Positions 2,728 through 63,151 of a DNA stretch of 64,000 bases are shown in pieces. How positions within the stretch are numbered: position 1 is the first letter of the stretch; the number at the start of each line of letters is the position of its first letter. The notes below the pieces were generated by a model. It ran no database searches, was not told the origin of the DNA, and worked only from the letters and a program-made list of their open reading frames with translations. Origin of the DNA: Eubacteriales bacterium (GTDB lineage: Bacteria > Bacillota > Clostridia > Oscillospirales > QAKW01); assembly GCA_045593905.1 (NCBI GenBank), contig JAZNXL010000069.1:13355-77354 (forward strand), written 5' to 3'. A program made the position numbers and the translations under genes.

Positions 2728-4002
2728 TTGTTTTGTAAACCGTTTCCAAATGGGTGTTGCGATTGTACACATAACAAATGCAATAACTGCAAACACAATC
2801 CAAAATATAATAGTTGTGTTCCAACCGTAGTTTTGAGCAACATATCCAAACAGTATGTTGGCAACAACTGCACCGTAAGAGGCGATTGCATTAACGATTG
2901 ATGCAACAGAGCCGGAGTGTCCATACCTTGAAAAGTGAGCAGGAATTATAACGTCCATTAACTGATGAGCCGCGTACATAAGCGTTGTTATAACCGCTAA
3001 AAACAGCACTATAAACAACACCGAAATTTTACCGATAAGCAGTAGTAAAAGAGTAAACGGCACTGTTATTAAAAAGCAGAGTCCCGATGCAAAAAACGAA
3101 TTTTTTGTAACGCGAGGATACAAAATACCTGCAATAAATATGCCGCCCAGATTAACAAAAACAATCGCCGTTGTAAGCATATTTGCAAAGCTGGGTGAAA
3201 TACCCGAATAGCTCTCAATTATCATTGTAGGCACCCACGCTTTTAAGCCAACGTCAAGAGAGGTGCGTATAAACGACGGAACAAGCAACAATACAAGACC
3301 GCTTGCTAAAACAATTTTTAACAGGCTATGGCTTTGTTCGCTTTTGCCTGTTACGCCGGATGTGTCGTCATACAAATGTTTTTGATATTCATAATGCAGT
3401 GCAACACATGCGGTTTTTGTTTTTATAACAACAATACGCCAGCCAATAAACGTAACAGCCAAAATAACCGACATTAATATAAATAGTACCTTCCAGTGCG
3501 AAACTGCTAAAACAATTGATGCAAAAAGATAGTTTAACAGCATACCGGCACAGTAGCAAAACGAAATTGCGCTCATTGCCGAATATGTATGGTCGGGGTG
3601 CAAAAACTCGGTTATTATGCGAAGAATAGCAGGCCATATTGCAAACTGTATCAGTCCGCAAAGGCTCCAGAATACAAGCATTAAAACAAAACTGTTCGAA
3701 AACGCCATTCCGAGTGTTGCAATAGCAGTACCTATAAGCGTTATATTAACAAGTCGTGACGGCTGAATTTTGTCAACAAGCTTAACACCTACAAGCTGCG
3801 CGGTACCATAAAACAAATAAAAGCTTGCATTTATAACGCCTGCCTGTGATTTATTAAAAAGTCCTTCTTCAATAATTGATGCAATTGATGCTGAATAGGT
3901 GCTTTTTGTCATTGACACAACAGCATAAATTATCCAGCTTGCAATAAATAATACCCAGCTGGCACGTTTTGGACTTGTTATTTGCCTGAGTTTAATTTTC
4001 AT
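2725..4002 (-). CDS. MFS-type transporter
   Basis: 425 aa, about 12 hydrophobic helices, no soluble domain. Family-level call only. Confidence 0.75.
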   Translation of the reverse strand: MKIKLRQITSPKRASWVLFIASWIIYAVVSMTKSTYSASIASIIEEGLFNKSQAGVINASFYLFYGTAQLVGVKLVDKIQPSRLVNITLIGTAIATLGMAFSNSFVLMLVFWSLCGLIQFAIWPAILRIITEFLHPDHTYSAMSAISFCYCAGMLLNYLFASIVLAVSHWKVLFILMSVILAVTFIGWRIVVIKTKTACVALHYEYQKHLYDDTSGVTGKSEQSHSLLKIVLASGLVLLLVPSFIRTSLDVGLKAWVPTMIIESYSGISPSFANMLTTAIVFVNLGGIFIAGILYPRVTKNSFFASGLCFLITVPFTLLLLLIGKISVLFIVLFLAVITTLMYAAHQLMDVIIPAHFSRYGHSGSVASIVNAIASYGAVVANILFGYVAQNYGWNTTIIFWIVFAVIAFVMCTIATPIWKRFTKQ

Positions 4003-4068: not shown

Positions 4069-4095
4069 CAACAATTATTAAACTTTCGGAATATT

Positions 4096-4156
4096 AATGA
4101 ATTGCCTACGGCATTAATTGAGTCTTACGACTGATGAATTGCACCTTTGGCACATT
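4096..4156. repeat. Mini-hairpin array, ATGAATT-linker family (about 3 units)
   Basis: AATGAATT-GCC TAC GGC-ATTAATT-GAGTC TTAC GACT-GATGAATT-GCACCTTTGGCAC-ATT. Same linker plus short GC hairpin units as at 14329-14419, 14801-14886, 22267-22390 and 28266-28373. Confidence 0.55.
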
Positions 4157-4183
4157 AAAAAAGCACCCTTTCGGGTGCTTTTT
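4157..4183. terminator. Rho-independent terminator hairpin (GCACCC TTTC GGGTGC), copy 1 of a recurrent sequence
   Basis: AAAAAAGCACCCTTTCGGGTGCTTTTT, with A-run and T-run on both sides. Confidence 0.7.
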
Positions 4184-4213: not shown

Positions 4214-4351
4214 AAGTAAAAGGTAAAAAGTAATAGTGAAAAAGTAATGAAGGAACACAAGAAAAGCTTGTGTTCCTTTTAATTTAAAAAACTCGGCTAA
4301 AAGCCGAGTTTATCCTTAACTATTCACTATTCACTCTTACCTATCACCTAT
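4214..4351 (+). repeat. Composite palindromic intergenic element, copy A (purine heptad arm, hairpin H1, hairpin H2, pyrimidine heptad arm)
   Basis: AAGTAAAAGGTAAAAAGTAATAGTGAAAAAGTAA / GGAACACAAG-loop-CTTGTGTTCC / TTTTAATTTAAAAAA / CTCGGCT-AAA-AGCCGAG / TTTATCCTTAACTATTCACTATTCAC. Alignable with copies at 7847, 18243, 29667 and 40197. Confidence 0.85.
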
Positions 4352-4381
4352 AAAAAAAGCACCCTTTCGGGTGCATTTTTT
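4352..4381 (-). terminator. Rho-independent terminator of the DUF3810-like gene, copy 2 of the GCACCC TTTC GGGTGC hairpin
   Basis: AAAAAAAGCACCCTTTCGGGTGCATTTTTT directly abutting the stop codon at 4380-4382. Confidence 0.75.
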
Positions 4382-7846: not shown

Positions 7847-7983
7847 TAGGTAATAGGTAAGAGTGAATAGTGAATAGATTAGGACAAAACTCGGCTTAAA
7901 GCCGAGTTTTATAAATTAAAAGGAACACAACCAAAGTTGTGTTCCCTCGTTACCTTTTCACTATTACTTTTTACTTATTACCT
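7847..7983 (-). repeat. Composite palindromic intergenic element, copy B (inverted orientation)
   Basis: Reverse complement aligns with copies A, C and E. H2 is CTCGGCT-TAA-AGCCGAG; H1 is GGAACACAAC-CAAA-GTTGTGTTCC. Heptad arms on both sides. Confidence 0.85.
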
Positions 7984-7987
7984 AAAT

Positions 7988-8018
7988 AAAAAAAGCAGTC
8001 TTTCGACTGCTTATTTTT
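7988..8018 (-). terminator. Rho-independent terminator of rplS
   Basis: GCAGTC TTTC GACTGC hairpin with a T-run on the minus strand, 2 nt after the rplS stop. Confidence 0.75.
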
Positions 8019-11374: not shown

Positions 11375-12429
11375 ATTCTATCCTCCGCCATGGCAAGTTC
11401 AATAAGCCTGTCGGCAAGGGTATAGCCCTCAAGACCGCCGTACGCCATCATTTTGGGGTACATACTAATATCGGTAAAACCTGGGATAGTGTTAAGCTCG
11501 TTAAGTATAATCTGCTCGTCGTCGGTTACAAAAAAGTCAACGCGCGACATACCCTGACACTCCATTGCGCGATAAACCTGTTTTGCGGCTTGTACCACAC
11601 GCTTTTGACAGTCCTCGCTTATTTTTGCAGGGATAAACAAAAGCGACTCGGGGTTATTGTATTTTGCGTCAAAGCTGTAAAAATCGTCAGCCGATGCAAT
11701 CTGACCGCAAACAGGACAGTAAAGCTCGCTGTTGCCAAGCACTGCCGCCTCAACCTCATAGCCTACAACGCACTCCTCAACCAAAATTTTAAAGTCGTGC
11801 TTTGCCGCCTCTAAAAGTCCGCTAACGAGCGACTCTCTATTACTGCACTTTGTAACGCCAACACTTGAGCCGGCACTTGACGGCTTTACAAACACAGGGT
11901 AGTCAAAGCGTTTTTCAACAAGCTCAACTGCGGGCGCGGTGTCTTTTAAAATATCGTAATTATAGAAAAACTCAAAGTCGGCGGTTTTAATGCCTGCACG
12001 CTCGCAAATTATTTTGGTAATAACCTTATCCATACTGCAAGCGCCGCTTGTCATTGTGGTGGTAACCTGCGGTATGCCTGCAAGCTTAAGCAGGGCCGCG
12101 ATTGCGCCGTCCTCACCATTTTTGCCGTGAAGAATAGGAAACGCCACGTCAACATAAATGCTCTTACCGTTTTCAAGCAGTATGCCGTGGGTTTTTGTAT
12201 CGGGCGAGATTATGGCAGGGATACTTCCCTCTTGCCAGTCGTCGTTTGCAATAGCTTTTGTGTCGGCATCAGTTAAAAACCACTCGCCGTTTTGGGTTAT
12301 TGCAACCTTTACAACGTTGTATTTTTGTGTATCTAAAATATTTATAACATTGGCTGCCGATTTGCACGAAATTTTATGTTCACTTGATGCGCCGCCAAAA
12401 AGCACAGCGACTGTAAGTTTTTTCGACAT
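11371..12429 (-). CDS. ddl: D-alanine--D-alanine ligase
   Basis: VLFGGASSEHKIS, HGKNGEDG and NTIPGFT motifs. Start at ATG 12429 after GGAG; the track start at 12453 adds 8 aa. Confidence 0.93.
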   Translation of the reverse strand: MSKKLTVAVLFGGASSEHKISCKSAANVINILDTQKYNVVKVAITQNGEWFLTDADTKAIANDDWQEGSIPAIISPDTKTHGILLENGKSIYVDVAFPILHGKNGEDGAIAALLKLAGIPQVTTTMTSGACSMDKVITKIICERAGIKTADFEFFYNYDILKDTAPAVELVEKRFDYPVFVKPSSAGSSVGVTKCSNRESLVSGLLEAAKHDFKILVEECVVGYEVEAAVLGNSELYCPVCGQIASADDFYSFDAKYNNPESLLFIPAKISEDCQKRVVQAAKQVYRAMECQGMSRVDFFVTDDEQIILNELNTIPGFTDISMYPKMMAYGGLEGYTLADRLIELAMAEDRI

Positions 12430-14315: not shown

Positions 14316-14328
14316 ATACACTTCGTGT

Positions 14329-14419
14329 AATGAATTGCACCTTGCAATTCAATTCATTGAGCGAAAAGCGAAAATTCATGGCGACAGCCAATTCATTGAG
14401 CGCTAAGCGAAAATTCATT
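14329..14419. repeat. Mini-hairpin array upstream of the four-helix-bundle gene (AATTCATT orientation, 4-5 units)
   Basis: AATGAATTGCACCTTGC then AATTCATT-GAGCGAAAAGCGAA, AATTCAT-GGCGACAGCC, AATTCATT-GAGCGCTAAGCGAA, AATTCATT. The linker is the reverse complement of the one in the 14801-14886 array. Confidence 0.7.
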
Positions 14420-14445
14420 TTATTATAGTTTAAAGGTTTAACAAA

Positions 14446-14805
14446 ATGAAAGAAAACAAACTTATAGATTTATCAAAGCAGTTTGCTATTGACGTTATAA
14501 CCCTTTGCAACAAAACAAAAGAGGCTAAAAAAGGCAGTGTTCTCATAAACCAGTTACTGCGATGCGGTACAAGTGTTGGTGCAAATATACATGAAGCCAA
14601 CTATGCATCAAGCAAATCTGACTTTATAAACAAACTGCAAATCGCATTAAAAGAGTGCTACGAAACTGATTATTGGTTGGAAATTTTTAACGAAACAAAA
14701 ATTATTTCCGAGCAGGAATTTACATCCCTATATAACAACTGTAGCAGAATAAGAAAAATACTTATCGCATCAATAACGACTGCGAAAAATAATAATTCAC
14801 AATGA
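14446..14805 (+). CDS. Four-helix-bundle protein (23S rRNA intervening-sequence protein / Avd-like family)
   Basis: 119 aa, all-helical, with the family pattern LLRCGTSVGANIHEANYASSKSDFINKLQIALKECYETDYWLEI. Confidence 0.8.
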   Translation: MKENKLIDLSKQFAIDVITLCNKTKEAKKGSVLINQLLRCGTSVGANIHEANYASSKSDFINKLQIALKECYETDYWLEIFNETKIISEQEFTSLYNNCSRIRKILIASITTAKNNNSQ

Positions 14806-14886
14806 ATTGCACCTTGCGGTGCATGAATTGTACCTTGCGACACAATGAATTGCACCTTGCGGCGCATGAATTGTGCTTCGCACATT
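14801..14886. repeat. Mini-hairpin array downstream of the four-helix-bundle gene (AATGAATT orientation, 4 units of ~22 nt)
   Basis: AATGAATT-GCACC TTGC GGTGC / ATGAATT-GTACCTTGCGACAC / AATGAATT-GCACC TTGC GGCGC / ATGAATT-GTGC TTC GCAC-ATT. The CDS stop TGA (14803-14805) lies inside the first linker. Confidence 0.75.
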
Positions 14887-14907
14887 ATACTTTAAGGAGA
14901 ATTATAT

Positions 14908-17671: not shown

Positions 17672-17944
17672 ATGAACAAAGCAGAACTTATTGCAGCAGT
17701 TGCAGCATCAGCAGAGGTTTCACAAAAAGAAGCAGCCAAAGTTGTTGGCGCAGTTATGGACGAAATCAAAGAAGCTCTTAAAAAAGGCGACAAAGTTCAA
17801 CTCGTTGGCTTCGGTTCTTTCGAAGTTAAAAACAAACCCGAAAGAAAAGGTAAAAACCCCAGAACCGGCGAAGAAATCACAATCAAAGCTTCAAAAGCTC
17901 CTGTATTCAAAGCTGGTAAAGCATTTAAAGAATACATCGGTTAA
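17672..17944 (+). CDS. hup: HU-family DNA-binding protein
   Basis: 90 aa, MNKAELI...GFGSFEV...RKGKNPRTGEEI, typical of HU. Strong GGAGG ribosome-binding site. Confidence 0.95.
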   Translation: MNKAELIAAVAASAEVSQKEAAKVVGAVMDEIKEALKKGDKVQLVGFGSFEVKNKPERKGKNPRTGEEITIKASKAPVFKAGKAFKEYIG

Positions 17945-17956
17945 TAAAACAAAAAC

Positions 17957-17987
17957 ACTGCAGGTTTTAAAACCTGCAGTATTTTTT
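17957..17987 (+). terminator. Rho-independent terminator of hup
   Basis: ACTGCAGGTTTT / AAAACCTGCAGT perfect hairpin followed by a T-run. Confidence 0.85.
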
Positions 17988-17999
17988 ATAGGTGAATAT

Positions 18000-18242
18000 A
18001 TGAGAATTGATAAATACTTAAAAGTATCACGACTTATAAAAAGGCGCACCGTTGCGCAGGAGGCTTGCGACGGCGGCAGAGTAAGTGTTGGCGGCAAGGT
18101 TGTAAAGCCTTCGTACGACGTTAAAGAGGGCGATATTATTGAGCTTTCTTTCGGCGCTAAAAAAACAAAGGTAAAGGTTACAAAGGTATGCGACTTTATT
18201 AAGGCTAACGAAGCCGATACCATGTACGAACTGCTAAATTAG
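18000..18242 (+). CDS. yabO: S4-domain RNA-binding protein (YabO/RqcP, Hsp15-like)
   Basis: 80 aa starting MRIDKYLKVSRLIKRRTVA, with conserved position after mazG-hup. The longer track ORF from 17691 is an out-of-frame run through hup. Confidence 0.8.
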   Translation: MRIDKYLKVSRLIKRRTVAQEACDGGRVSVGGKVVKPSYDVKEGDIIELSFGAKKTKVKVTKVCDFIKANEADTMYELLN

Positions 18243-18379
18243 TAAGTAATAAGTAAAAAGTAATAGTGAAAAAGTAACGTGGGAACGCAACTTTGGTTGC
18301 GTTCCTTTTAATTAAAAAAACTCGGCTTTTAGCCGAGTTTTCTCCTTACCTATTCACTATTACCTATTACCTATTACTT
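18243..18379 (+). repeat. Composite palindromic intergenic element, copy C
   Basis: Begins immediately after the yabO stop. Arms are in 7-nt register (AGTAAGT AATAAGT AAAAAGT AATAGTG ... TATTCAC TATTACC TATTACC TATTACT). H1 is GGAACGCAAC-TTTG-GTTGCGTTCC; H2 is CTCGGCT-TTT-AGCCGAG. Confidence 0.88.
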
Positions 18380-18380
18380 T

Positions 18381-18409
18381 AAAAAAGCACCCTTTCGGGT
18401 GCTTTTTTT
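18381..18409. terminator. Rho-independent terminator, copy 3 of the GCACCC TTTC GGGTGC hairpin
   Basis: AAAAAAGCACCCTTTCGGGTGCTTTTTTT abutting the stop of the minus-strand gene at 18408. Confidence 0.75.
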
Positions 18410-26912: not shown

Positions 26913-28265
26913 ATGAGTTTTAAGAACGAGTATTTACAGGGCGTAATGGACAAAGTAATCGCCCGCAACCCCGGTGAGCCGGAGTTTCATCAGGCAGTAG
27001 AAGAGGTTTTAGTTTCACTTGAGCCTGTTGTTGAAATGCACCCCGAGTACATTGAGCAGGGCGTTATTGACAGAATTGTTGAGCCCGAAAGACAAATCTT
27101 TTTCAGAGTACCGTGGGTTGACGACAACGGCAAGGTACAGGTAAACCGCGGCTTTAGAATTCAGTTTAACTCGGCAATCGGTCCTTACAAGGGCGGTCTT
27201 AGATTCCACCCGTCAGTAAACCCCTCAATTATGAAGTTTTTGGGCTTTGAGCAAACATTCAAAAACAGCCTTACAGGTCTTCCTATCGGCGGCGGTAAGG
27301 GTGGTTCTGACTTTGACCCCAGAGGCCGTTCAAACGGCGAGATTATGAGATTTTGCCAAAGCTTTATGACCGAGCTTTACCGTCACATCGGCTCACACGT
27401 TGACGTGCCCGCAGGTGACATTGGCGTTGGTGCAAGAGAAATCGGCTACCTCTTTGGTCAGTACAAAAGAATTTGCAATAACTACGAAAACGCAGTTTTA
27501 ACAGGCAAAGGCCTTTCATACGGCGGCAGCCTTATCCGTCCCGAAGCTACAGGCTTTGGCGCTACATATTTCTGTAACGAAGTGCTTAAAAAATGGGGCG
27601 AAGACTTTAGGGGCAAAACCTTTGCAGTATCGGGCTTTGGTAACGTTGCCTGGGGCGCTGTGCTCAAAATCAACGAGCTTGGCGGTAAGGTACTTACAAT
27701 TTCAGGTCCCGACGGCTACATATACGACGAAAACGGCGTAACCGCTGACAAAGCAGCGTATATGCTCGAAATGCGTGCATCAGGTCGCGACAAGGTTCAA
27801 GACTACGCTGACAAGTTCGGTGTTAAGTTTGTTGCAGGCAAAAAGCCTTGGGAAGTTAAGGTTGATGTTGCTATGCCTTGCGCAACACAAAACGAGGTTG
27901 GTCTTGAAGACGCTAAAAACATTGTTGCAAACGGCACAAAATTCTACATTGAGGTTGCTAACATGCCTACCACAAAAGAGGCTGTTGACTACTTTGTTGC
28001 AAACGGCGTTGTTGTTGCTCCTTCAAAGGCAGTTAACGCAGGCGGCGTTGCAGTTTCAGCTCTTGAAATGTCACAAAACAGTATGCGTCTTTCGTGGACT
28101 GCAGAAGAAGTTGACCAAAAGCTTAAAGCTATTATGGTTAACATCTTTAACGCAGCATACGACACCGCTGAAAAATACGGTCAAAAGGGCAATCTTATTA
28201 TGGGCGCTAACATTGCAGGCTTTGAAAAGGTTGCAGAGGCAACTCTCGCTCACGGCATTGTTTAA
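26913..28265 (+). CDS. gdhA: NADP-type glutamate dehydrogenase
   Basis: KGGLRFHPSV and GGGKGGSDFDP motifs. Start at ATG 26913 after AAGGAGAAAG. Confidence 0.93.
   Translation: MSFKNEYLQGVMDKVIARNPGEPEFHQAVEEVLVSLEPVVEMHPEYIEQGVIDRIVEPERQIFFRVPWVDDNGKVQVNRGFRIQFNSAIGPYKGGLRFHPSVNPSIMKFLGFEQTFKNSLTGLPIGGGKGGSDFDPRGRSNGEIMRFCQSFMTELYRHIGSHVDVPAGDIGVGAREIGYLFGQYKRICNNYENAVLTGKGLSYGGSLIRPEATGFGATYFCNEVLKKWGEDFRGKTFAVSGFGNVAWGAVLKINELGGKVLTISGPDGYIYDENGVTADKAAYMLEMRASGRDKVQDYADKFGVKFVAGKKPWEVKVDVAMPCATQNEVGLEDAKNIVANGTKFYIEVANMPTTKEAVDYFVANGVVVAPSKAVNAGGVAVSALEMSQNSMRLSWTAEEVDQKLKAIMVNIFNAAYDTAEKYGQKGNLIMGANIAGFEKVAEATLAHGIV
28192..28265 (+). repeat. Direct repeat copy 1 (functional 3' end of gdhA)
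   Basis: 74 nt, 72/74 identical to 29589-29662. Confidence 0.95.
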
Positions 28266-28373
28266 TGAAATGCCTTACGGCGTTTCATTTAATGGCAAAA
28301 GCCATTTCATTTTGCAAAGCATCATTTCATTTAATCTATACGCCCTACGGCATGAAATGTGCTAACACACATT
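28266..28373. repeat. Mini-hairpin array, ATGAAAT-linker family (about 5 units)
   Basis: ATGAAATGCC TTAC GGCGTTTCAT-TTAATGGC AAAA GCCATT-TCATTTTGC AAA GCA-TCATTTCATTTAATCTATAC-GCC CTAC GGC-ATGAAATGTG CTAACA CACATT, starting at the nucleotide after the gdhA stop. Confidence 0.7.
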
Positions 28374-28404
28374 AAAAAAACGCACCCTTCGGGGTGCTTT
28401 TTTT
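28374..28404 (+). terminator. Rho-independent terminator, variant copy 4 of the GCACCC hairpin
   Basis: AAAAAAACGCACCCTTCGGGGTGCTTTTTTT. Confidence 0.75.
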
Positions 28405-28462
28405 ATTGCAAAAATTATTTATTTATAATATAATTATATTGTAAAACAGAGCATACGGTAAC

Positions 28463-28705
28463 ATGGTTGACATAGCCTTGTCAAAAGGTGCATACTGCGC
28501 TGTAGGATGGTGTAACGAAGCATTTGATGATGTAATGAATTGCTGGGTAGGTGATTTTTTTGACAAATGCACGGAGGGTGCAACGGTCGAAAATGCTATA
28601 GATTTTGCTGACAGCGCAATTAGTAATAGTTCAAAATATTCTGCCTATTATTCTTCGGTAATAAACAGATATTACGGCAGTAGTCCTTATTCCAGCTTGT
28701 ACTAG
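28463..28705 (+). CDS. Hypothetical 80-aa Cys/Trp/Tyr-rich protein, possibly a C-terminal gene remnant
   Basis: The ORF lies in the AT-rich insert. The frame is closed by a stop only 18 nt upstream of the ATG, no clear ribosome-binding site was seen, and no family was recognised. Confidence 0.3.
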   Translation: MVDIALSKGAYCAVGWCNEAFDDVMNCWVGDFFDKCTEGATVENAIDFADSAISNSSKYSAYYSSVINRYYGSSPYSSLY

Positions 28706-28735: not shown

Positions 28736-29581
28736 ATGAATAAAAAGAAAAGTTTAATTATAATAATTTTTATTTTAGTTATTGCTTTAATATTTAGCAT
28801 ATCCTCATTAGCTATCGTTAACTCAGACATATTTGAAGCAAATATTTTTAACAATAAAATTCAGCGTACTAATGCAGAAAAAACCAAGGTGTTTTCAATT
28901 GATAACGGAGTTGAAAAGCAATTAACTTATAAAGAAACTCAAAATTACAGCGCAAGCAATTATGTAGATATTTATGAAGACTCAGAGAAAAATCAATATC
29001 GTTATGATAATCAAGAAAATCTTATAGGCTATATAAACAATAACATTGATGATAAGCTCGAATCTCAGATAATTGACGACAAAGCTCTTGACAGCAGAAT
29101 TTCTCAGGACGAAGCTATCAGCATTGCAACTGCCTATGCTCAAAAAATGTACCAAAACACTTTTGATGATTTTAACTATTCAAGCTCATTATATGCCGAG
29201 CACTCAAATCTTTATAATATACACTTCAACGTCACTGCAGGAAAAGATAAACAAATATCCGTAGCTACATGTTATGTCGGTGTGTATTTAAGCGGAAAAG
29301 TAGCATCATGCAATATGCCGACGTGGTATGAAAAAAGTAAAATTGATTTCAATAAACTTAACAGAATCTCAAAAAGCGACTTAGAAAAATTTGCAGATAA
29401 TGAAGCAAAAGAAATATATGGAAATGATTTTGTAAATTGTTACGTATATGAAGAAGTAGGCGCTTTTTTAACCGCGAAAGACAACAGTTTTGTTGTTGCT
29501 GTACCAATAATTGTAACATTAAAAAATATCAACGGTGACAATTATGATATGGTAAAAGAACTGTATTATGAATTCACATAA
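28736..29581 (+). CDS. Hypothetical secreted or membrane-anchored protein (281 aa), AT-rich foreign composition
   Basis: AGGAG ribosome-binding site (28721-28725), and an N-terminal Lys-rich plus hydrophobic signal/anchor. Two internal segments (SQDEAISIATAYAQKMY, SKSDLEKFADNEAKEIYG) recall PepSY-type domain starts; this assignment is weak. Confidence 0.6.
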   Translation: MNKKKSLIIIIFILVIALIFSISSLAIVNSDIFEANIFNNKIQRTNAEKTKVFSIDNGVEKQLTYKETQNYSASNYVDIYEDSEKNQYRYDNQENLIGYINNNIDDKLESQIIDDKALDSRISQDEAISIATAYAQKMYQNTFDDFNYSSSLYAEHSNLYNIHFNVTAGKDKQISVATCYVGVYLSGKVASCNMPTWYEKSKIDFNKLNRISKSDLEKFADNEAKEIYGNDFVNCYVYEEVGAFLTAKDNSFVVAVPIIVTLKNINGDNYDMVKELYYEFT

Positions 29582-29588
29582 CAACAGT

Positions 29589-29662
29589 ATCTTATTATGG
29601 GCGCTAACATTGCAGGCTTTGAAAAGGTTGCAGAGGCAACTCTCGCTCACGGAATAGTTTAA
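29589..29662 (+). pseudogene. Orphan duplicate of the gdhA 3' end (direct repeat copy 2)
   Basis: Encodes LIMGANIAGFEKVAEATLAHGIV-stop in the gdhA frame. The two differences from copy 1 are synonymous (GGC/GGA, ATT/ATA). No upstream coding continuation. Confidence 0.9.
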
Positions 29663-29666
29663 AAAT

Positions 29667-29746
29667 TAGTAAGTAATATCTAAGAAGTAATAGTGAAAAA
29701 GTAATGATGAAACACGGCTTTTGCCGTGTTTCTTTTTATTTTTTAT
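29667..29746 (+). repeat. Composite palindromic intergenic element, copy D (truncated: left arm plus H1 only)
   Basis: TAGTAAGTAATATCTAAGAAGTAATAGTGAAAAAGTAATGAT then H1 GAAACACGGC-TTTT-GCCGTGTTTC and a T-run. H2 and the right arm are absent. Confidence 0.75.
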
Positions 29747-29806
29747 TGAAAAATCTATTAATATATACTATAATTTAATTTTCAAAATAATTATAGAGGT
29801 AAAAAT

Positions 29807-35058: not shown

Positions 35059-35973
35059 ATGAACAAGGTGTTCATAGACGGTTCGGCGGGAACCACAGGG
35101 CTTAAAATTGCCGAGCGTTTATCGGGCAGAACCGACATTGAGCTTATAAAACTGCCTGACAACTTACGAAAAAATACCGATGCAAAAAAAGAGGCGTTAA
35201 ACAGTGCCGATATTGTATTTTTATGCTTACCCGACGATGCGGCAAAAGAGTCGGTATCGCTTATAACAAACCCCGACACAGTTGTAATTGACACATCGAC
35301 GGCGCACAGAACGGCTGAGGGCTGGGTATACGGCTTTGCCGAGCTTGTAGGGTACGACAGCGTTAAAAACGCAAAGCGAATTGCAAACCCCGGTTGCCAC
35401 GCAAGCGGATACATAGCACTTATAAGACCGCTTGTTGAAGCGGGTATTTTAAAGCAGGGCGCGAGTCTTTGTTGCACATCAATTACAGGCTACTCAGGGG
35501 GAGGCAAAAAAATGATTGCCGACTACCAAGATGCCGATGCTCTGCTCGGCGCGCCAAGGCTTTACGCGCTTTCGCAGCAACACAAGCATTTAAAAGAAAT
35601 GGTAAAGCTTTCTTGCCTTGATACCACCCCTGCGTTTATGCCAATAGTGAGCAACTTTTACAGCGGTATGCAGGTGATTGTGCCTGTGTTTAAAAGCGAT
35701 TTAAACGGCGGTATTGACGATATAAAAGCGGTATATAAACAAAAGTACACAGGCGACGTTGTTGTATACAGTGAAAACGCCGACGAAAGCGGGTTTATGT
35801 CGAGTGCAAAGCTTTCAACACTTGATAAAATGGAAATAAGCGTACAGGGTAACGACGAGCGAATTTTGCTTGTTGCAAGGTACGATAATCTGGGTAAGGG
35901 CGCATCGGGTGCCGCTATTCAGAATATGAACATTGTACTCGGCGCAAACGAGTGCGAGGGTTTAATACTGTAG
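35059..35973 (+). CDS. argC: N-acetyl-gamma-glutamyl-phosphate reductase (short form)
   Basis: 304 aa with active-site context NPGCHASG, and first position in the arg operon. Confidence 0.88.
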   Translation: MNKVFIDGSAGTTGLKIAERLSGRTDIELIKLPDNLRKNTDAKKEALNSADIVFLCLPDDAAKESVSLITNPDTVVIDTSTAHRTAEGWVYGFAELVGYDSVKNAKRIANPGCHASGYIALIRPLVEAGILKQGASLCCTSITGYSGGGKKMIADYQDADALLGAPRLYALSQQHKHLKEMVKLSCLDTTPAFMPIVSNFYSGMQVIVPVFKSDLNGGIDDIKAVYKQKYTGDVVVYSENADESGFMSSAKLSTLDKMEISVQGNDERILLVARYDNLGKGASGAAIQNMNIVLGANECEGLIL

Positions 35974-35985
35974 GAGAAAAAGAAA

Positions 35986-37200
35986 ATGAAGATTATAAAC
36001 GGCGGCGTTACTGCCGCAAAAGGATTTGTAGCAAACGGTATGCATTGCGGTATGCGTAAAAACCGCACAAAGCGCGACGTTGCGTTAATTTACAGTAACA
36101 CTTTGTGCGACGCGGCGGCGGTTTACACCTCTAACCTTGTAAAAGGCGCGCCCATTGCCGTAACAAAGCAAAACATATCAAACGGCAAGGCAAAGGCTAT
36201 TGTTTGCAACAGCGGTAACGCTAACACCTGTAATGCAAACGGCGTTGAGGTTGCAACCAAAATGTGCGAGCTTGTAGGCGATAAGCTGGGCATTGACGCA
36301 AGTGACGTTATCGTGGCATCAACAGGCGTTATAGGTCAGCCGCTTAATATTGAGCCGTTTAAAAACGGACTTGACGCGCTGGCAGACGGTTTATCGGCTG
36401 ACGGCGGCAAGTATGCAGCCGAGGCAATAATGACAACCGACACCAAGGCAAAAGAGATTGCAGTCGAGTTTATGCTGGGCGGTAAGGTATGTAAAATGGG
36501 CGGTATTGCAAAGGGCAGCGGTATGATTCACCCCAACCTTGCAACAATGCTCGTGTTTATTACAACCGACGCGGCAATATCGAGCGATATGCTTGAAAAA
36601 GCGTTAAAGACCGATGTTCAGAACACCTTTAACATGGTATCAATCGACGGCGACACGTCAACAAACGATATGGTAACAGTTATTGCAAACGGCGAGGCGG
36701 GCAACGACAAAATCACCGAGGAAACCGCCGATTTTTGCAGCTTTGCAAAGGCGCTTAACACAGTAACCGTTGCGCTTTGTCAAATGATTGCCGCCGACGG
36801 CGAGGGCGCAACAAAGCTACTTGAGTGTAACGTTACAGGCGCAAAGTGTGAGGCTTGCGCTAAAGCGGTTGCAAAAAGCGTTATTTGTTCAAGCCTTTTA
36901 AAATCGGCAATGTTTGGCGCCGATGCTAACTGGGGGCGTGTGCTTTGTGCTATCGGCTACAGCGGTGCGGCGGTTGACGTAAACGCGGTTGACGTTAGCT
37001 TTAAATCACAAAAAGGCGAAATACTTGTATGCAAAAACGGTGCAGGTGTTGAGTTTTCGGAAGAATACGCAAAAGAGATTTTGCTGCAGGATAAAATTTA
37101 CATAAACGTAAACTTAAACTCGGGTGATAAATCGGCTACCGCTTGGGGCTGTGACCTTACCTATGACTATGTAAAAATTAACGGAGATTACAGAACATAA
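35986..37200 (+). CDS. argJ: Bifunctional ornithine acetyltransferase / N-acetylglutamate synthase
   Basis: Autoprocessing site context HPNLATMLVFITTDA, 404 aa. Confidence 0.93.
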   Translation: MKIINGGVTAAKGFVANGMHCGMRKNRTKRDVALIYSNTLCDAAAVYTSNLVKGAPIAVTKQNISNGKAKAIVCNSGNANTCNANGVEVATKMCELVGDKLGIDASDVIVASTGVIGQPLNIEPFKNGLDALADGLSADGGKYAAEAIMTTDTKAKEIAVEFMLGGKVCKMGGIAKGSGMIHPNLATMLVFITTDAAISSDMLEKALKTDVQNTFNMVSIDGDTSTNDMVTVIANGEAGNDKITEETADFCSFAKALNTVTVALCQMIAADGEGATKLLECNVTGAKCEACAKAVAKSVICSSLLKSAMFGADANWGRVLCAIGYSGAAVDVNAVDVSFKSQKGEILVCKNGAGVEFSEEYAKEILLQDKIYINVNLNSGDKSATAWGCDLTYDYVKINGDYRT

Positions 37201-38069
37201 TGGAAAATACATTTTCAAATGCCCAGCGCGCCGAGGTTTTAACACAGGCGCTCCCCTACATAAAGCACTACACAGGCAAGGTGCTTGTTATCAAATACGG
37301 CGGCAACGCTATGATTAACGAACACTTAAAGCAACAGGTTATGGAAGACATTGTTCTTTTGTGGCTTATAGGCGTTAAGGTTGTGCTTGTTCACGGCGGC
37401 GGACCCGAAATATCAGAGCTTATGGCGCGTCTTGGCAAAAAAGCCGAGTTTGTAGACGGTCTTCGCGTTACCGACAAAGAGACGGTTGATATTGTACAAA
37501 TGGTGCTTGCAGGCAAGGTAAACAAAACGCTCGTTAACCTTTTAGAGATGAAGGGCGGCAAGGCTATGGGCATATCGGGTATGGACGGTATGCTTATTGA
37601 GTCAAAAATTAAAGATACGCGCCTTGGCTACGTTGGCGAAATTACAAAAATTCATATAAACCCTGTAAACGACCTGCTCGAAAAAGGCTATATCCCTGTT
37701 ATTTCAACACTCGGCTGCGACCGCGAGGGCAACGCCTATAACATAAACGGCGACACCGCGGCGGCGTACATTGCAGGCGCTTTAAATGCCGAGCGCCTTA
37801 TTATGATGACCGATATTGCAGGTATTTTAAAAGATAAAGACGACCCCAACACACTTATACCCGAAATTACTGTTTCACAGGCTCTTACGCTTTATGACGA
37901 AGGCATTATTTCGGGCGGTATGATACCAAAGGTTAACTGCTGTATCGAGGCAATTAACAAGGGCGTTAAAAACGTAACAATAATGGACGGACGCGTACCG
38001 CACTCAATTCTTATGGAAATTTTAACCGACGAGGGCGCAGGTACACAGGTAATTGGTGATAAAAAATGA
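37200..38069 (+). CDS. argB: Acetylglutamate kinase
   Basis: VIKYGGNAM and VLVHGGGP motifs. Confidence 0.93.
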   Translation: MENTFSNAQRAEVLTQALPYIKHYTGKVLVIKYGGNAMINEHLKQQVMEDIVLLWLIGVKVVLVHGGGPEISELMARLGKKAEFVDGLRVTDKETVDIVQMVLAGKVNKTLVNLLEMKGGKAMGISGMDGMLIESKIKDTRLGYVGEITKIHINPVNDLLEKGYIPVISTLGCDREGNAYNINGDTAAAYIAGALNAERLIMMTDIAGILKDKDDPNTLIPEITVSQALTLYDEGIISGGMIPKVNCCIEAINKGVKNVTIMDGRVPHSILMEILTDEGAGTQVIGDKK

Positions 38070-39229
38070 GTATTACGGCAATAGACAAACAATACGTTGC
38101 AAACACGTATAACCGCTTTGGCATTGAGCTTACACACGGCAAAGGCTCAATAGTTTGCGACACAAATAACAAAGAATATATTGATATGGGCACAGGCATT
38201 GGCGTTACCGCCTTTGGCTACTGCGACAAGGTATGGTGCGATGCTATAACAAAGCAGTTAACAAAGCTTCAGCACACCTCTAACCTTTACTATACCGAGC
38301 CGTGCGCTCACCTTGCCCAGCTTTTGTGTAACAAAACAGGCTTTAAAAAGGTGTTTTTTGCAAACTCGGGCGCCGAGGCTAACGAGTGCGCCATTAAGGC
38401 GGCGCGTAAGTACGGTATGGCGAGCGACCGCTACAAAATTTTAACACTCGAGGGCAGTTTTCACGGCAGAACCCTTACAACGCTCGCAGCCACAGGTCAA
38501 GAGCATTATCACGAGTTGTTCACACCATTAACCGACGGCTTTGTACACACACCTGTTAACGATTTTGAAAAGTTAAAGGATACCGCGCTTTCAAACAACG
38601 TTTGCGCCGTTATGGTTGAGTGTATTCAGGGCGAGGGCGGTGTAATAACGCTTGATGCCGAGTTTTTAAAGAGCACCTACGAATTTTGTAAGGCAAACGA
38701 TATTTTGCTTATTGTTGACGAGGTGCAAACAGGCAACGGCAGAACAGGCAAGCTTTATGCGTATATGAACTACGGCATCACCCCCGACATTGTGACCACC
38801 GCAAAAGGTCTTGGCGGCGGACTGCCGATTGGCGCGTGTATGTTAAACAACAAGGTCGAAAATATATTCGCCTACGGCGACCACGGCTCAACCTACGGCG
38901 GTAACCCCGTTTGCTCGGCAGGCGCAATAAGCGTAATCGAGCGCCTTGACGACAAGTTTTTAAAAGAGGTTACAAAAAAGAGCGAGTACATATTTGGCGA
39001 GCTGAACGGTGCCGACGGCATTGAGGCTTTAAGCGGTATGGGGCTTATGGTCGGCATTAAAACAACCGCGCCCGCAGGCGACGTTGTTAAAGAGTGCATA
39101 AACCGAGGGGTTTTGTGCCTTACCGCAAAAGACAAGGTAAGGCTGTTGCCCGCGCTTAACATTGACTGTGACACGCTCAAAAAAGCAATAACTATTATTA
39201 AAGAGGTATGCTATGAACTTAAAAAATAA
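38066..39229 (+). CDS. argD: Acetylornithine aminotransferase
   Basis: Class III aminotransferase: [21 protein letters not shown], and PLP lysine context TTAKGLGGG. Confidence 0.92.
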
Positions 39230-40196
39230 AAGCTTTTTAAAGCTACTTGATTTTACACCCCAAGAGATTAATTACCTGCTCGATTTATCAGCCGAGCTCA
39301 AGGCTAAAAAGAAACAGGGTATCCCCCACCGCTTATGCGAGGGCAAGTCTATTGCCTTGGTGTTTGAAAAAACAAGCACCCGTACACGCTGTGCGTTTGA
39401 GGTGGCTGCTGCCGACCTTGGTATGCACCCCACCTACCTTGACCCGTCAGGCTCACAGATTGGTAAAAAAGAGAGCATTGCCGACACCGCGCGAGTGCTC
39501 GGACGTATGTTTGACGGCATTGAGTACCGCGGCTTTGGTCAGGAGATTGTTGAAGAGCTTGCCGCATACGCAGGCGTGCCGGTTTGGAACGGACTTACCA
39601 ACGAGTTCCACCCCACCCAGATTCTTGCCGACTTTTTAACAATTAAAGAGCACACAGGCAAGCTTGAGGGCTCAAAGCTTGTGTATATGGGCGATGCAAG
39701 ATATAATATGGGCAACTCGTATATGGTGGGCTGCGCTAAAATGGGTATGCACTTTGTTGCCTGCGCGCCAAAGGAGTTTTTCCCCGACCAAAAGCTTATT
39801 GACGAGTGCCAAAAAATTGCTAAAGAAACAGGCGCAACACTCGAGTTTTGCGAGGACGTTGACTTAGCCGTTAAGGGCGCTGATATTATTTGCACTGACG
39901 TGTGGGTATCAATGGGCGAGCCGGATAGCGTTTGGCAAGAGCGAATCGAAAAGCTTTCGCCCTACCGCGTTACAATGGAGGTTATGAAAAAAGCAGGCGA
40001 CAACACCAAGTTTATGCACTGCCTGCCTGCCTTCCACGATGTTAAAACCACCATCGGCAAAGAGATTTATAATAAGTTCGGTATCGACTGTATGGAGGTT
40101 ACCGACGAGGTTTTTGAGAGCGAGCGCTCAATAGTATTTGACGAAGCCGAAAACCGTATGCACACTATTAAGGCAGTAATGTGCGCTACGCTTTGA
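39213..40196 (+). CDS. argF: Ornithine carbamoyltransferase
   Basis: STRTR, HPTQ and HCLP motifs. Confidence 0.93.
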
Positions 40197-40330
40197 GGTA
40201 AAAAGTAATAGTGAAAAGTGAAAAAGTAACGAAAGAACACAACCTTGGTTGTGTTCTTTTTAATTAAAAAACTCGGCTTTCAGCCGAGTTTTATCCTTAC
40301 CTATTCACTATTACCTATTACTTATTCACT
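40197..40330 (+). repeat. Composite palindromic intergenic element, copy E
   Basis: Starts at the nucleotide after the argF stop. H1 is AGAACACAAC-CTTG-GTTGTGTTCT; H2 is CTCGGCT-TTC-AGCCGAG. Heptad arms on both sides. Confidence 0.88.
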
Positions 40331-40334
40331 AAAT

Positions 40335-40364
40335 AAAAAAGCAGCCTCTAAAGGCTGTTTTTTA
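40335..40364 (-). terminator. Rho-independent terminator of argH (hairpin overlaps the argH stop)
   Basis: AACAGCCT TTAG AGGCTGCTT followed by a T-run on the minus strand. Confidence 0.7.
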
Positions 40365-43138: not shown

Positions 43139-43161
43139 ATTTATGTATTTTAATAATGTTT

Positions 43162-43252
43162 TTTGTAACTGACGGAACAGGGTAAGTTTTACCCTTGCAG
43201 AGCACTGCAAAGAAGCAAAAAGCATAGTTTTATTAAGCCGACCGTCTGGGCA
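43162..43252 (+). ncRNA. ZTP (pfl-motif) riboswitch aptamer
   Basis: ACTGACGGAAC...GGGTAAGTTTTACCC hairpin, variable linker, then GCCGACCGTCTGGGCA. GACGG (43171-43175) is complementary to CCGTC (43242-43246), as in the conserved pseudoknot GGCGG/CCGCCUGGGCA. Located upstream of purine genes. Confidence 0.7.
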
Positions 43253-43289
43253 CATTTACTCGTCATACGGGGTAAGTGTGCTTATTTTT
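43250..43289 (+). terminator. Riboswitch expression-platform terminator
   Basis: GCACATTTAC (43250-43259) / GTAAGTGTGC (43272-43281) followed by TTATTTTT. The 5' arm abuts or overlaps the conserved CUGGGCA of the aptamer. Confidence 0.7.
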
Positions 43290-63124: not shown

Positions 63125-63151
63125 AAAAAAGCACCCGTTTGGGTGCTTTTT
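63125..63151. terminator. Bidirectional terminator, variant copy 5 of the GCACCC hairpin
   Basis: AAAAAAGCACCCGTTTGGGTGCTTTTT between convergent genes. Confidence 0.75.

Follow-up and report, generated by a model that had tools for sequence, protein, structure and literature searches.

Much has been written on the small palindromic repeats of Proteobacteria, Neisseria and streptococci, and hardly any such description exists for the uncultured Clostridia that dominate animal guts. The Correia (NEMIS) elements of Neisseria (~100–155 bp) are short, non-coding and multi-copy, lie between genes near gene ends, possess terminal inverted repeats (TIRs) that form a long stem, and carry transcription signals. 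REP, BIME and REPIN sequences are extragenic palindromic units found at gene 3' ends or between convergent genes, arranged as inverted pairs in mosaic, strain-variable spacers; proposed roles of REP and BIME are termination and the protection of mRNA 3' ends. The BOX elements of Streptococcus pneumoniae are modular (boxA-boxB(n)-boxC), with end modules that pair mutually, and BOX and RUP are both intergenic repeats of Firmicutes. The element described here was found in a 64-kb window (the whole stretch of DNA analysed) of contig JAZNXL010000069.1, assembly GCA_045593905.1, from a Eubacteriales bacterium; the host is an uncultured gut bacterium of the Oscillospiraceae (Clostridiales). The window holds four full copies of ~137 nt and one half copy, all located between or after gene ends and neighboured by ordinary housekeeping genes. 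As far as could be checked the family is undescribed, being kin by kind to Correia/NEMIS, REP/BIME/REPIN, BOX and RUP and a member of no named family. The explanation we favour, with moderate confidence, is a modular terminator cassette that has been moved or exchanged: a palindromic intergenic repeat, non-coding, of the miniature inverted-repeat transposable element (MITE), REP/BIME or Correia kind.

A repeat family at gene 3' ends

A first-pass annotation of this DNA had listed five copies of the repeat, and sequence inspection and alignment bore out every coordinate and strand: full copies at 4214–4351 (+), 7847–7983 (−), 18243–18379 (+) and 40197–40330 (+), and a half copy at 29667–29746 (+). 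The full copies align across ~150 columns, the half copy at the left arm and first hairpin only, and the copies must be old because their pairwise identity is just 78–85%. No other place in the window was matched by an nhmmer profile built from the four full copies. At ≤3 mismatches the arm 18-mer GTAATAGTGAAAAAGTAA matches the window 11 times against 0.18 expected by chance, and a scan of the window for clustered heptads anchored on GT[AG]A found nine arms, 9/9 of them within the five elements. Copy 18243 was recovered independently on a contig of the public run X3 (18248–18370, one difference) and is therefore not an assembly artefact. The reading as a genuine family of non-coding palindromic repeats located at gene 3' ends is thus supported.

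Each full copy comprises, in order, arm A (~37 nt), a short CG-containing linker, hairpin H1, TTTT, AATT with an A-run, hairpin H2, TTT(T) and arm B. Arm B is pyrimidine-rich in the orientation of the element and is hence a purine arm on the other strand, and the half copy consists of one arm, H1 and its T-run, nothing more. What repeats is a purine arm of heptads joined to a GC-rich hairpin with its T-run, and a full copy is two such units face to face, arm A being paired with H1 and arm B with H2. The composite of ~140 nt initially taken as the repeated unit draws the boundary too wide, as the arms recur elsewhere beside different central hairpins; the sequence at 29667–29746, correctly located but described as a truncated copy, is better read as one complete unit of arm and H1.

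The arms have a composition of 50% A, 26% G, 23% T and 1% C on the purine strand and contain 4–6 heptad-like repeats of the types GTAATAG, GTGAAWA and GTAAAAA. Twelve heptad types were found overall, the commonest being GTAATAG (n=11), GTGAATA (n=7), GTGAAAA (n=6) and GTAAAAA (n=4). Successive heptad anchors are spaced by 7 nt (n=15), 6 nt (n=9) or 8 nt (n=8), so that of the 7-nt register first proposed the heptad-like character stands and the strict register does not, the real period being a 14-nt GTAATAGTGAAAAA unit. Each arm carries 7–9 stop codons, against ~4.4 in shuffled sequence, and all three frames are closed in 9/9 arms, leaving no open reading frame (ORF) on the purine strand; the complementary strand has no stops in six of the nine arms and one or two in the other three.

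As had been noticed from the letters, the two arms of a copy are imperfectly complementary, forming TIRs of ~35–40 nt that in copy 7847 reach TTATTTAGGTAATA at both ends. This complementarity arises because both arms are built of the same heptads in opposite orientation. Arm pairing lacks copy-specific compensation, the left arms pairing equally well or better with the right arms of other copies, and the outer stem is therefore an inverted repeat of common sequence and not a co-varying RNA helix; a selected long arm-arm RNA helix was ruled out on this absence of co-variation. Folding of the whole element against shuffled sequences gave z = -9.6 for + strand RNA, -13.1 for − strand RNA and -9.3 for DNA. 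The complement of the arm A-H1-H2-arm B reading (the − strand at 18243) folds better in 3/4 copies, because A·C mismatches turn into G·U (G·T/U); this is a weak hint, and strand asymmetry was dropped as an argument.

H1 is a 10-bp stem with a loop of 4–5 nt followed by TTTT. Across the five copies 50/50 stem cells are paired; all nine aligned pairs are 100% paired and five of them have changed on both sides, a result matched by 0/500 shuffles, and when the stem is slid as a control pairing drops to 34–58%. The tenth pair, read by hand, shows a flip from C-G to G-C in copy 4214, bringing the both-sided changes to six of ten pairs. The paired substitutions that keep the stem are as originally quoted, and H1 is constrained on structure and not on sequence. 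H2 shows the reverse pattern, as first claimed: its stem is invariant and its loop exists in four versions (AAA, TTA, TTT and TTC). The H2 core AACTCGGCT-NNN-AGCCGAGTT has four exact matches in the window against 0.01 expected, and 17 of 18 aligned columns are invariant in the four full copies, the remaining column being an alignment gap, compared with 63% invariant columns outside H2 (P ~3e-4 for the 18-column stem). The stem is also unchanged in the related contig L128. H2 is thus constrained on sequence, with its loop free.

Both hairpins have the form of an intrinsic terminator, a GC-rich stem-loop followed by a T-run. A terminator consensus scan called H1 in copies 18243, 7847 and 29667 and the opposite-strand H2 in copy 4214, and the copies without a call at H1 or H2 share the same design of hairpin and T-run. 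An A-run precedes H2 and a T-run follows it, making it bidirectional. The proposed back-to-back terminator pair is supported in that H1 with its T-run, and the complement of H2 with its T-run, score as intrinsic terminators. The RNA evidence for the organism comes from a single metatranscriptome in assembled form; the runs with raw RNA reads are single-cell and miRNA libraries, probably of the host animal. Beyond arm B, at a distance of 3–5 nt, each of the four full copies has a further bidirectional terminator that touches the stop of the convergent gene, and three of these four outer terminators are near-identical AAAAGCACCCTTTCGGGTGCTTTT. This AAAAGCACCCTTTCGGGTGCTTTT terminator recurs at unrelated loci (4159–4182, 4355–4378 and 18383–18406, with variants at 28378–28401 and 63127–63150), and it also forms the outer end of the AATTCAT-type arrays, described below, in the window and in the related contig L131.

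Copy 18243 lies between the genes of an S4-domain protein and an NAGPA-domain protein. Its arm A (18243–18279, + strand), purine-rich and heptad-like, begins directly 3' of the TAG of the S4-domain gene (18240–18242) and has nine stop codons across all three frames, with none on the opposite strand. H1 (GGAACGCAAC-TTTG-GTTGCGTTCC then TTTT; 18282–18309, + strand) is the predicted terminator for + strand transcription and the top-ranked terminator-like site, H2 (AACTCGGCT-TTT-AGCCGAGTT, with its A-run and T-run on the two sides; 18319–18339) is bidirectional, and arm B (18340–18379) is a purine heptad arm when read on the − strand. The outer bidirectional terminator AAAAGCACCCTTTCGGGTGCTTTT (18383–18406) abuts the stop of the convergent NAGPA-domain gene (18408). 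The ORF upstream, 17691–18242, contains a strong bidirectional terminator-like palindrome of 16 pairs (17951–17986), and its S4 domain starts from residue 104, so the real gene start is probably near 18000.

In copy 4214 (+), between an MFS transporter gene and that of a DUF3810 protein, arm A is at 4214–4250, H1 at 4252–4276 with its T-run, H2 at 4290–4310 and arm B at 4313–4351, and the outer terminator (4355–4378) precedes the stop of the DUF3810 gene. Copy 7847 is inverted (−; arm A 7947–7983, H1 7922–7945, H2 7888–7908, arm B 7847–7884) and sits in the fba/rplS spacer between the rplS terminator (7993–8012) and the fba terminator. Copy 40197 (+; arm A 40197–40231, H1 40234–40257, H2 40270–40290, arm B 40291–40330) begins directly 3' of the TGA of argF (40194–40196), and its outer terminator (40336–40363) precedes the stop of argH. 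Upstream of argF, argC-like, argJ, argB and argD genes occupy 35059–39229, between pyruvate kinase and argF; in L131 (94% ArgH identity) argF directly follows pyruvate kinase, and in more distant relatives argF and argH are ~7 kb apart.

The half copy (+) consists of an arm at 29667–29707 and H1 at 29709–29732 (GAAACACGGC-TTTT-GCCGTGTTTC with its T-run), located between a remnant of the 3' end of the glutamate dehydrogenase (GDH) gene and a queuosine-precursor transporter gene. The TAA 5 nt upstream of it (29660–29662) belongs to that remnant, a duplicated piece of 72 nt and not an intact gene. Three copies had been said to start within 0–5 nt of a stop codon, and the positions are correct, with the qualification that the stop at 29667 is part of this GDH remnant. 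No promoter-like site was found by consensus scans inside or directly upstream of the copies. The ORFs outside the 30 that were scanned (about half of the window's genes) were named by synteny with Pfam-annotated loci of relatives only. Exact matches elsewhere to the proteins of the neighbouring genes were either lacking or lay on contigs ending at the repeat.

Exchange of the element between strains

Presence, absence and inversion of the element were all seen among related strains, a comparison proposed in the first-pass annotation; the ArgH relatives are metagenome-assembled genomes (MAGs) named Oscillospiraceae or Clostridiales. The rplS-fba spacer exists in three states among contigs that code for an identical L19 protein: it holds the element as in the window; the element inverted, without H1 and behind the same rplS terminator (L128); or no heptad element and an array of AATTCAT and mini-hairpin units in its place (L125–127). 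In L125–127 the rplS terminator differs, and the fba terminator and its flank are conserved. The argF-argH spacer carries an AATTCAT-type composite array in L131, and in relatives at 81–82% ArgH identity either a bare 29-nt bidirectional terminator (L133) or TCGATAT and hairpin arrays (L139). Runs X1 and X2 have an AATTCAT-type unit next to the 3' end of the S4-domain gene, and the protein there ends in ...MYELL* as opposed to ...MYELLN* in the window, where the extra codon and the TAG lie in sequence that diverges from X1 and X2 and the TAG runs into arm A. A variant that skips H1 was also detected in X1 and X2, joining 18277 to 18315.

The GDH spacer of the window is itself duplicated. The 72-nt piece of the GDH 3' end (28193–28265 and 29589–29662) and a downstream promoter-like region (28406–28434 and 29746–29774) flank on both sides a 1.2-kb insert, absent in L131, that holds ORFs 28463–28705 and 28736–29581, the latter with a weak DUF4901 match. 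Between the stop and the T-run, one duplicate has an CATTTCAT-type array with a GCACCC/GGGTGC terminator and the other has the half element, which occupies the exact place held in the paralogous spacer (28266–28404) by the different array and terminator. Besides rplS-fba, AATTCAT-type arrays stand in place of the element at three loci: argF-argH (L131), the S4-gene spacer (X1, X2) and the GDH spacer. The pattern is one of replacement of a cassette between the stop codon and the T-run, and the slot is exchanged between strains, in which the element is present, inverted, without H1, or replaced by another repeat family.

This second family consists of ~21-nt units, each a 7-mer AATTCAT (or ATGAATT) with a short, variable and often GNRA-looped hairpin. 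The units form direct arrays that switch orientation mid-array and in relatives fill spacers that hold the heptad element in the window; arrays lie at 4090–4160, 14325–14420 and 14800–14890 of the window, in the rplS-fba spacer of L125–127, and at 3700–3880 and 9830–10090 of L131. Other arrays of a 7-mer and a hairpin are found after the window's GDH gene (CATTTCAT/ATGAAATG, 28266–28375) and after argH in L139 (TCGATAT/ATATCGA, 11400–11600; 81% ArgH identity). ORF 14446–14805 matches PF05635 (E = 1.5e-26), the four-helix-bundle family of the 23S rRNA intervening-sequence protein; with AATTCAT arrays of opposite orientation on its two sides, it looks like a small cassette.

The arms have a wider distribution than the hairpins. 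When metagenome runs were mapped onto the window, coverage was low and contigs broke at the repeats, the sequences of the loose ends being the useful part. In runs holding the organism, depth was 50–110 at arm B, 4–17 at H2 and 0–7 at H1, making arms 5–20 times more abundant in metagenomes than either hairpin, and an arm is joined to many different neighbours. A metagenome scan with the arm 18-mer returned at least 120 stretches, mostly chance matches within ORFs, and ~25 loci with real arms, at none of which H1 or H2 was found. Scans of viral contigs yielded no composite copy and one contig (L003) with arms adjoining tRNA-Tyr. In the convergent arrangement (L051, L053, L101) a purine arm, a hairpin and a pyrimidine arm follow each other and the central hairpins are unrelated to H1 and H2; the L051 locus lies between acpP and fabF, and that of L053 after a gene stop. 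In the divergent arrangement a terminator is followed by a pyrimidine arm, a short spacer, a purine arm and a second hairpin, and this order is seen directly 3' of tRNA-Tyr in L003, L015, L036 and L083. Single units of arm and terminator adjoin tRNA-Gln (L029) and tRNA-Ala (L044).

In the divergent cases the purine arm stands between direct repeats, of variable length (8–15 nt), of the terminator's A-run and 5' stem. Arms bracketed by such terminator-derived repeats are located after tRNA-Tyr and at other loci (L003, 1185–1310; L083, 450–560 and 790–910; L091, 250–375; L010, 790–900). Repeats of such varying length are not a fixed duplication; the bracketing is a hint that arms were inserted, or templates switched, at terminators. 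Behind tRNA-Tyr, arms are retained from one organism and species to the next as the terminator stem changes.

Classification and alternative explanations

Searches of known families returned little. At gathering thresholds the only Rfam match in the window is a ZMP/ZTP riboswitch (43155–43258, 52.5 bits versus a gathering score of 39), which lies upstream of a purE-purC-purF... purine operon; at the element itself the sub-threshold matches are to unrelated, generic small RNAs (sRNAs) bearing terminators. BLAST against phage and plasmid records produced generic matches to the outer terminator only, and a pattern of arm A with H2, run against 185,579 GTDB representative genomes (the source genome not among them), gave one chance match in a Methylococcaceae MAG. 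No description of this repeat family was found in the literature. The statement of the first-pass annotation that the element matches no named repeat family thus agrees with the searches of Rfam, phage and plasmid records and representative genomes.

Compared with MITEs, the element is likewise short (<~500 bp), non-coding, multi-copy and provided with TIRs, but lacks a fixed target-site duplication. Like REP sequences it is extragenic, located at 3' ends and built of inverted pairs; unlike them it has no conserved palindrome of 20–40 nt with a GTAG-type head, as H2 is conserved but headless, H1 is variable, and the conserved arms are not palindromic by themselves. It is filed as a new family of this general kind because it departs from both the strict MITE and the strict REP definitions. 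Of the MITE-like terminator cassette first suggested, the repeat and its terminators stand; the strict MITE does not, as no target-site duplication or clean empty site was found, nor a transposase among the 30 window ORFs scanned. Correia elements differ in their defined 26-bp TIRs, TA duplication and conserved whole units, whereas the window element has degenerate heptad arms, no duplication seen and an exchangeable centre, and shares no sequence similarity with them. BOX and RUP are likewise unrelated in sequence; in the window element the stops are one-stranded within each arm (none on the opposite strand in 6/9 arms) and the centre is made of terminator hairpins. Stops in all frames have already been noted for the 155-bp Correia form, CIR and RUP (PMC2229807).

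The closest heptamer analogue is the TAACTGA direct-repeat system, which is not palindromic. These repeats, known from Beggiatoaceae, Cyanobacteria and Bacteroidetes, close three frames in the forward orientation, and in some cases they overlap the stop codon of the ORF before them (PMC4679880). Like the cyanobacterial STRR sequences they are tandem 7-nt units in intergenic DNA, but they are exact, mostly precede a start codon at short distance and hardly ever occur inverted, whereas the window heptads are degenerate, sit at 3' ends in inverted pairs and are tied to terminator hairpins; an exact head-to-tail 7-nt unit is not seen among the 12 heptad types at their spacings of 6, 7 and 8 nt. 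Ordinary bidirectional terminators, GC-rich hairpins with an A-run and a T-run at their sides, match H2 and the outer terminators exactly, but lack conserved heptad arms and are not repeated at 78–85% identity over 137 nt at unrelated loci.

Under the terminator-cassette explanation, ribosomes reading in from either flanking gene would be released in any frame, and RNA polymerase would then meet an intrinsic terminator before the second arm. The cassette would be tolerated between a stop codon and the terminator that the gene has in common with its convergent neighbour because translation and transcription both end inside it; it could adjoin, or even supply, a stop codon without harm to its neighbours, and it may be useful as a backup terminator and a 3'-end hairpin beside a stop. 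H1, which is held by selection on pairing only, would be kept for its role as a terminator. From the invariant sequence of the H2 stem we infer a protein recognition site, for example for an enzyme that moves or copies the element. The element might spread through a transposase acting in trans on the arms, through an HUH Y1 enzyme acting on single-stranded DNA (ssDNA) hairpins as for REP/RAYT or IS200/IS605, or by way of recombination or template switching from one A-run/T-run terminator to another; this last route agrees best with the varying lengths of the repeats at tRNA loci and with the replacement of whole cassettes.

Several points weigh against this explanation. No transposase or RAYT (Y1 HUH) gene was detected among the 30 window ORFs scanned, which include the genes flanking all five elements; a clean empty site was not seen in the strains compared, in which the alternative allele always held another repeat, and the borders of the four copies show no consistent direct repeat and hence no fixed target-site duplication. 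Where relatives differ, the whole spacer differs, often including the terminator, which fits recombinational replacement or fast turnover as well as transposition. Templated correction of quasi-palindromes can also produce paired changes in palindromic DNA with no selection at work, termination at H1 and H2 is a prediction from their sequences, and the statistics are thin, with five copies of the subfamily and one in L128. The arms kept at tRNA-Tyr, finally, could have a function of their own and not be selfish DNA.

That last point leads to an alternative that we consider possible, if unlikely: the heptad arms would be a functional cis-acting array beside terminators, the family being kept by selection and not by mobility, and the hairpins would be local terminators. 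The arms might be bound by a single-strand-binding protein, for example an OB-fold protein of the cold-shock or S1 type, with a protomer on roughly every 7 nt, or Rho might land on them in read-through RNA as on a G-free, rut-like site. Their recurrence with unrelated central hairpins, their retention at tRNA-Tyr in several organisms with differing terminator stems and their excess over H1 and H2 in metagenomes all favour such a function, as does their extreme composition, 1% C on the purine strand making the other strand essentially G-free. Heptamer direct repeats have been proposed elsewhere as protein-binding sites, CspB binding one protein per heptamer (PMC4679880), which adds to the case. 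The same spacers in close relatives, however, have no arms and hold other repeats with the flanking genes unchanged, so the arms are dispensable at a given site, and they occur in both orders relative to terminators and transcription, so that no single RNA-level logic fits all. In an extended and quite improbable form of this idea, the heptad arms are a conserved, hitherto undescribed terminator-flanking signal of Oscillospiraceae and relatives, which a single-strand-binding factor would read in steps of 7 nt along RNA or a displaced DNA strand; the 7-mer and mini-hairpin arrays of AATTCAT, CATTTCAT and TCATAT... (TCGATAT in a related locus) would be interchangeable alternatives, and the H2 stem a second sequence-specific protein site.

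We are equally doubtful that the element is of the REP/BIME or REPIN type in the narrow sense, moved as ssDNA by a single-copy HUH Y1 transposase (RAYT or an IS200/IS605-like TnpA) that recognises H2 as its hairpin. Its extragenic inverted units at 3' ends between convergent genes, the strain-polymorphic spacer content reminiscent of BIMEs, the invariant H2 stem with its free loop, the folding of the whole element as ssDNA (z = -9.3) and the better folding of the complementary strand in 3/4 copies are all as such a mechanism would have it. The pyrimidine arm repeats TTAC every 7 nt, and TTAC is the target tetranucleotide of IS608; on this account the motif for cleavage or targeting would come from the TTAC/TCAC-rich arm. 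The scanned ORFs contain no Y1 transposase gene, the conserved palindrome is not accompanied by a conserved GTAG-type head, and relatives without H1 or without H2 (L128, L051, L053) leave no hairpin universal, all of which speaks against it. A discrete structured sRNA or cis-regulatory RNA, in which a long arm-arm stem would enclose a two-hairpin junction, is very unlikely. The very strong folding of both strands (z = -9.6 and -13.1) and the compensatory changes in H1 are what it has in its favour, but the arms do not co-vary by copy, promoter-like sites are missing in and directly upstream of the copies, H1 is dispensable, and the sub-threshold Rfam matches are to generic terminator-bearing sRNAs. 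Transcription of either strand should moreover end within the element, short of the second arm, and the structured RNA that the first-pass annotation had offered as an option is thus improbable as a discrete sRNA. Promoter function and an sRNA gene were dropped for the lack of nearby promoter-like sites, and attC-like R'/R'' motifs were dropped after no consistent motifs were found.

Implications for the host and its genomes

MAG assembly and gene calling both have to reckon with the heptad family and the AATTCAT-type arrays: short-read contigs break off at gene ends where these repeats lie, and a stop codon can be supplied or displaced by them. Since spacers differ between strains with identical flanking proteins, they may also serve as strain markers. 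If the logic of stopping translation and then terminating transcription is true, the element would be a natural version of the insulator cassettes of synthetic biology. The heptad arms' own function is an issue of interest in itself; were they a terminator-flanking signal, they would set termination efficiency, read-through or 3'-end stability. Three constraints act within a single element, on structure alone in H1, on sequence in H2 and on periodic sequence in the arms, and their contrast amounts to a clean natural experiment that tells the role of a terminator apart from that of a site recognised by a mobilising or binding protein.

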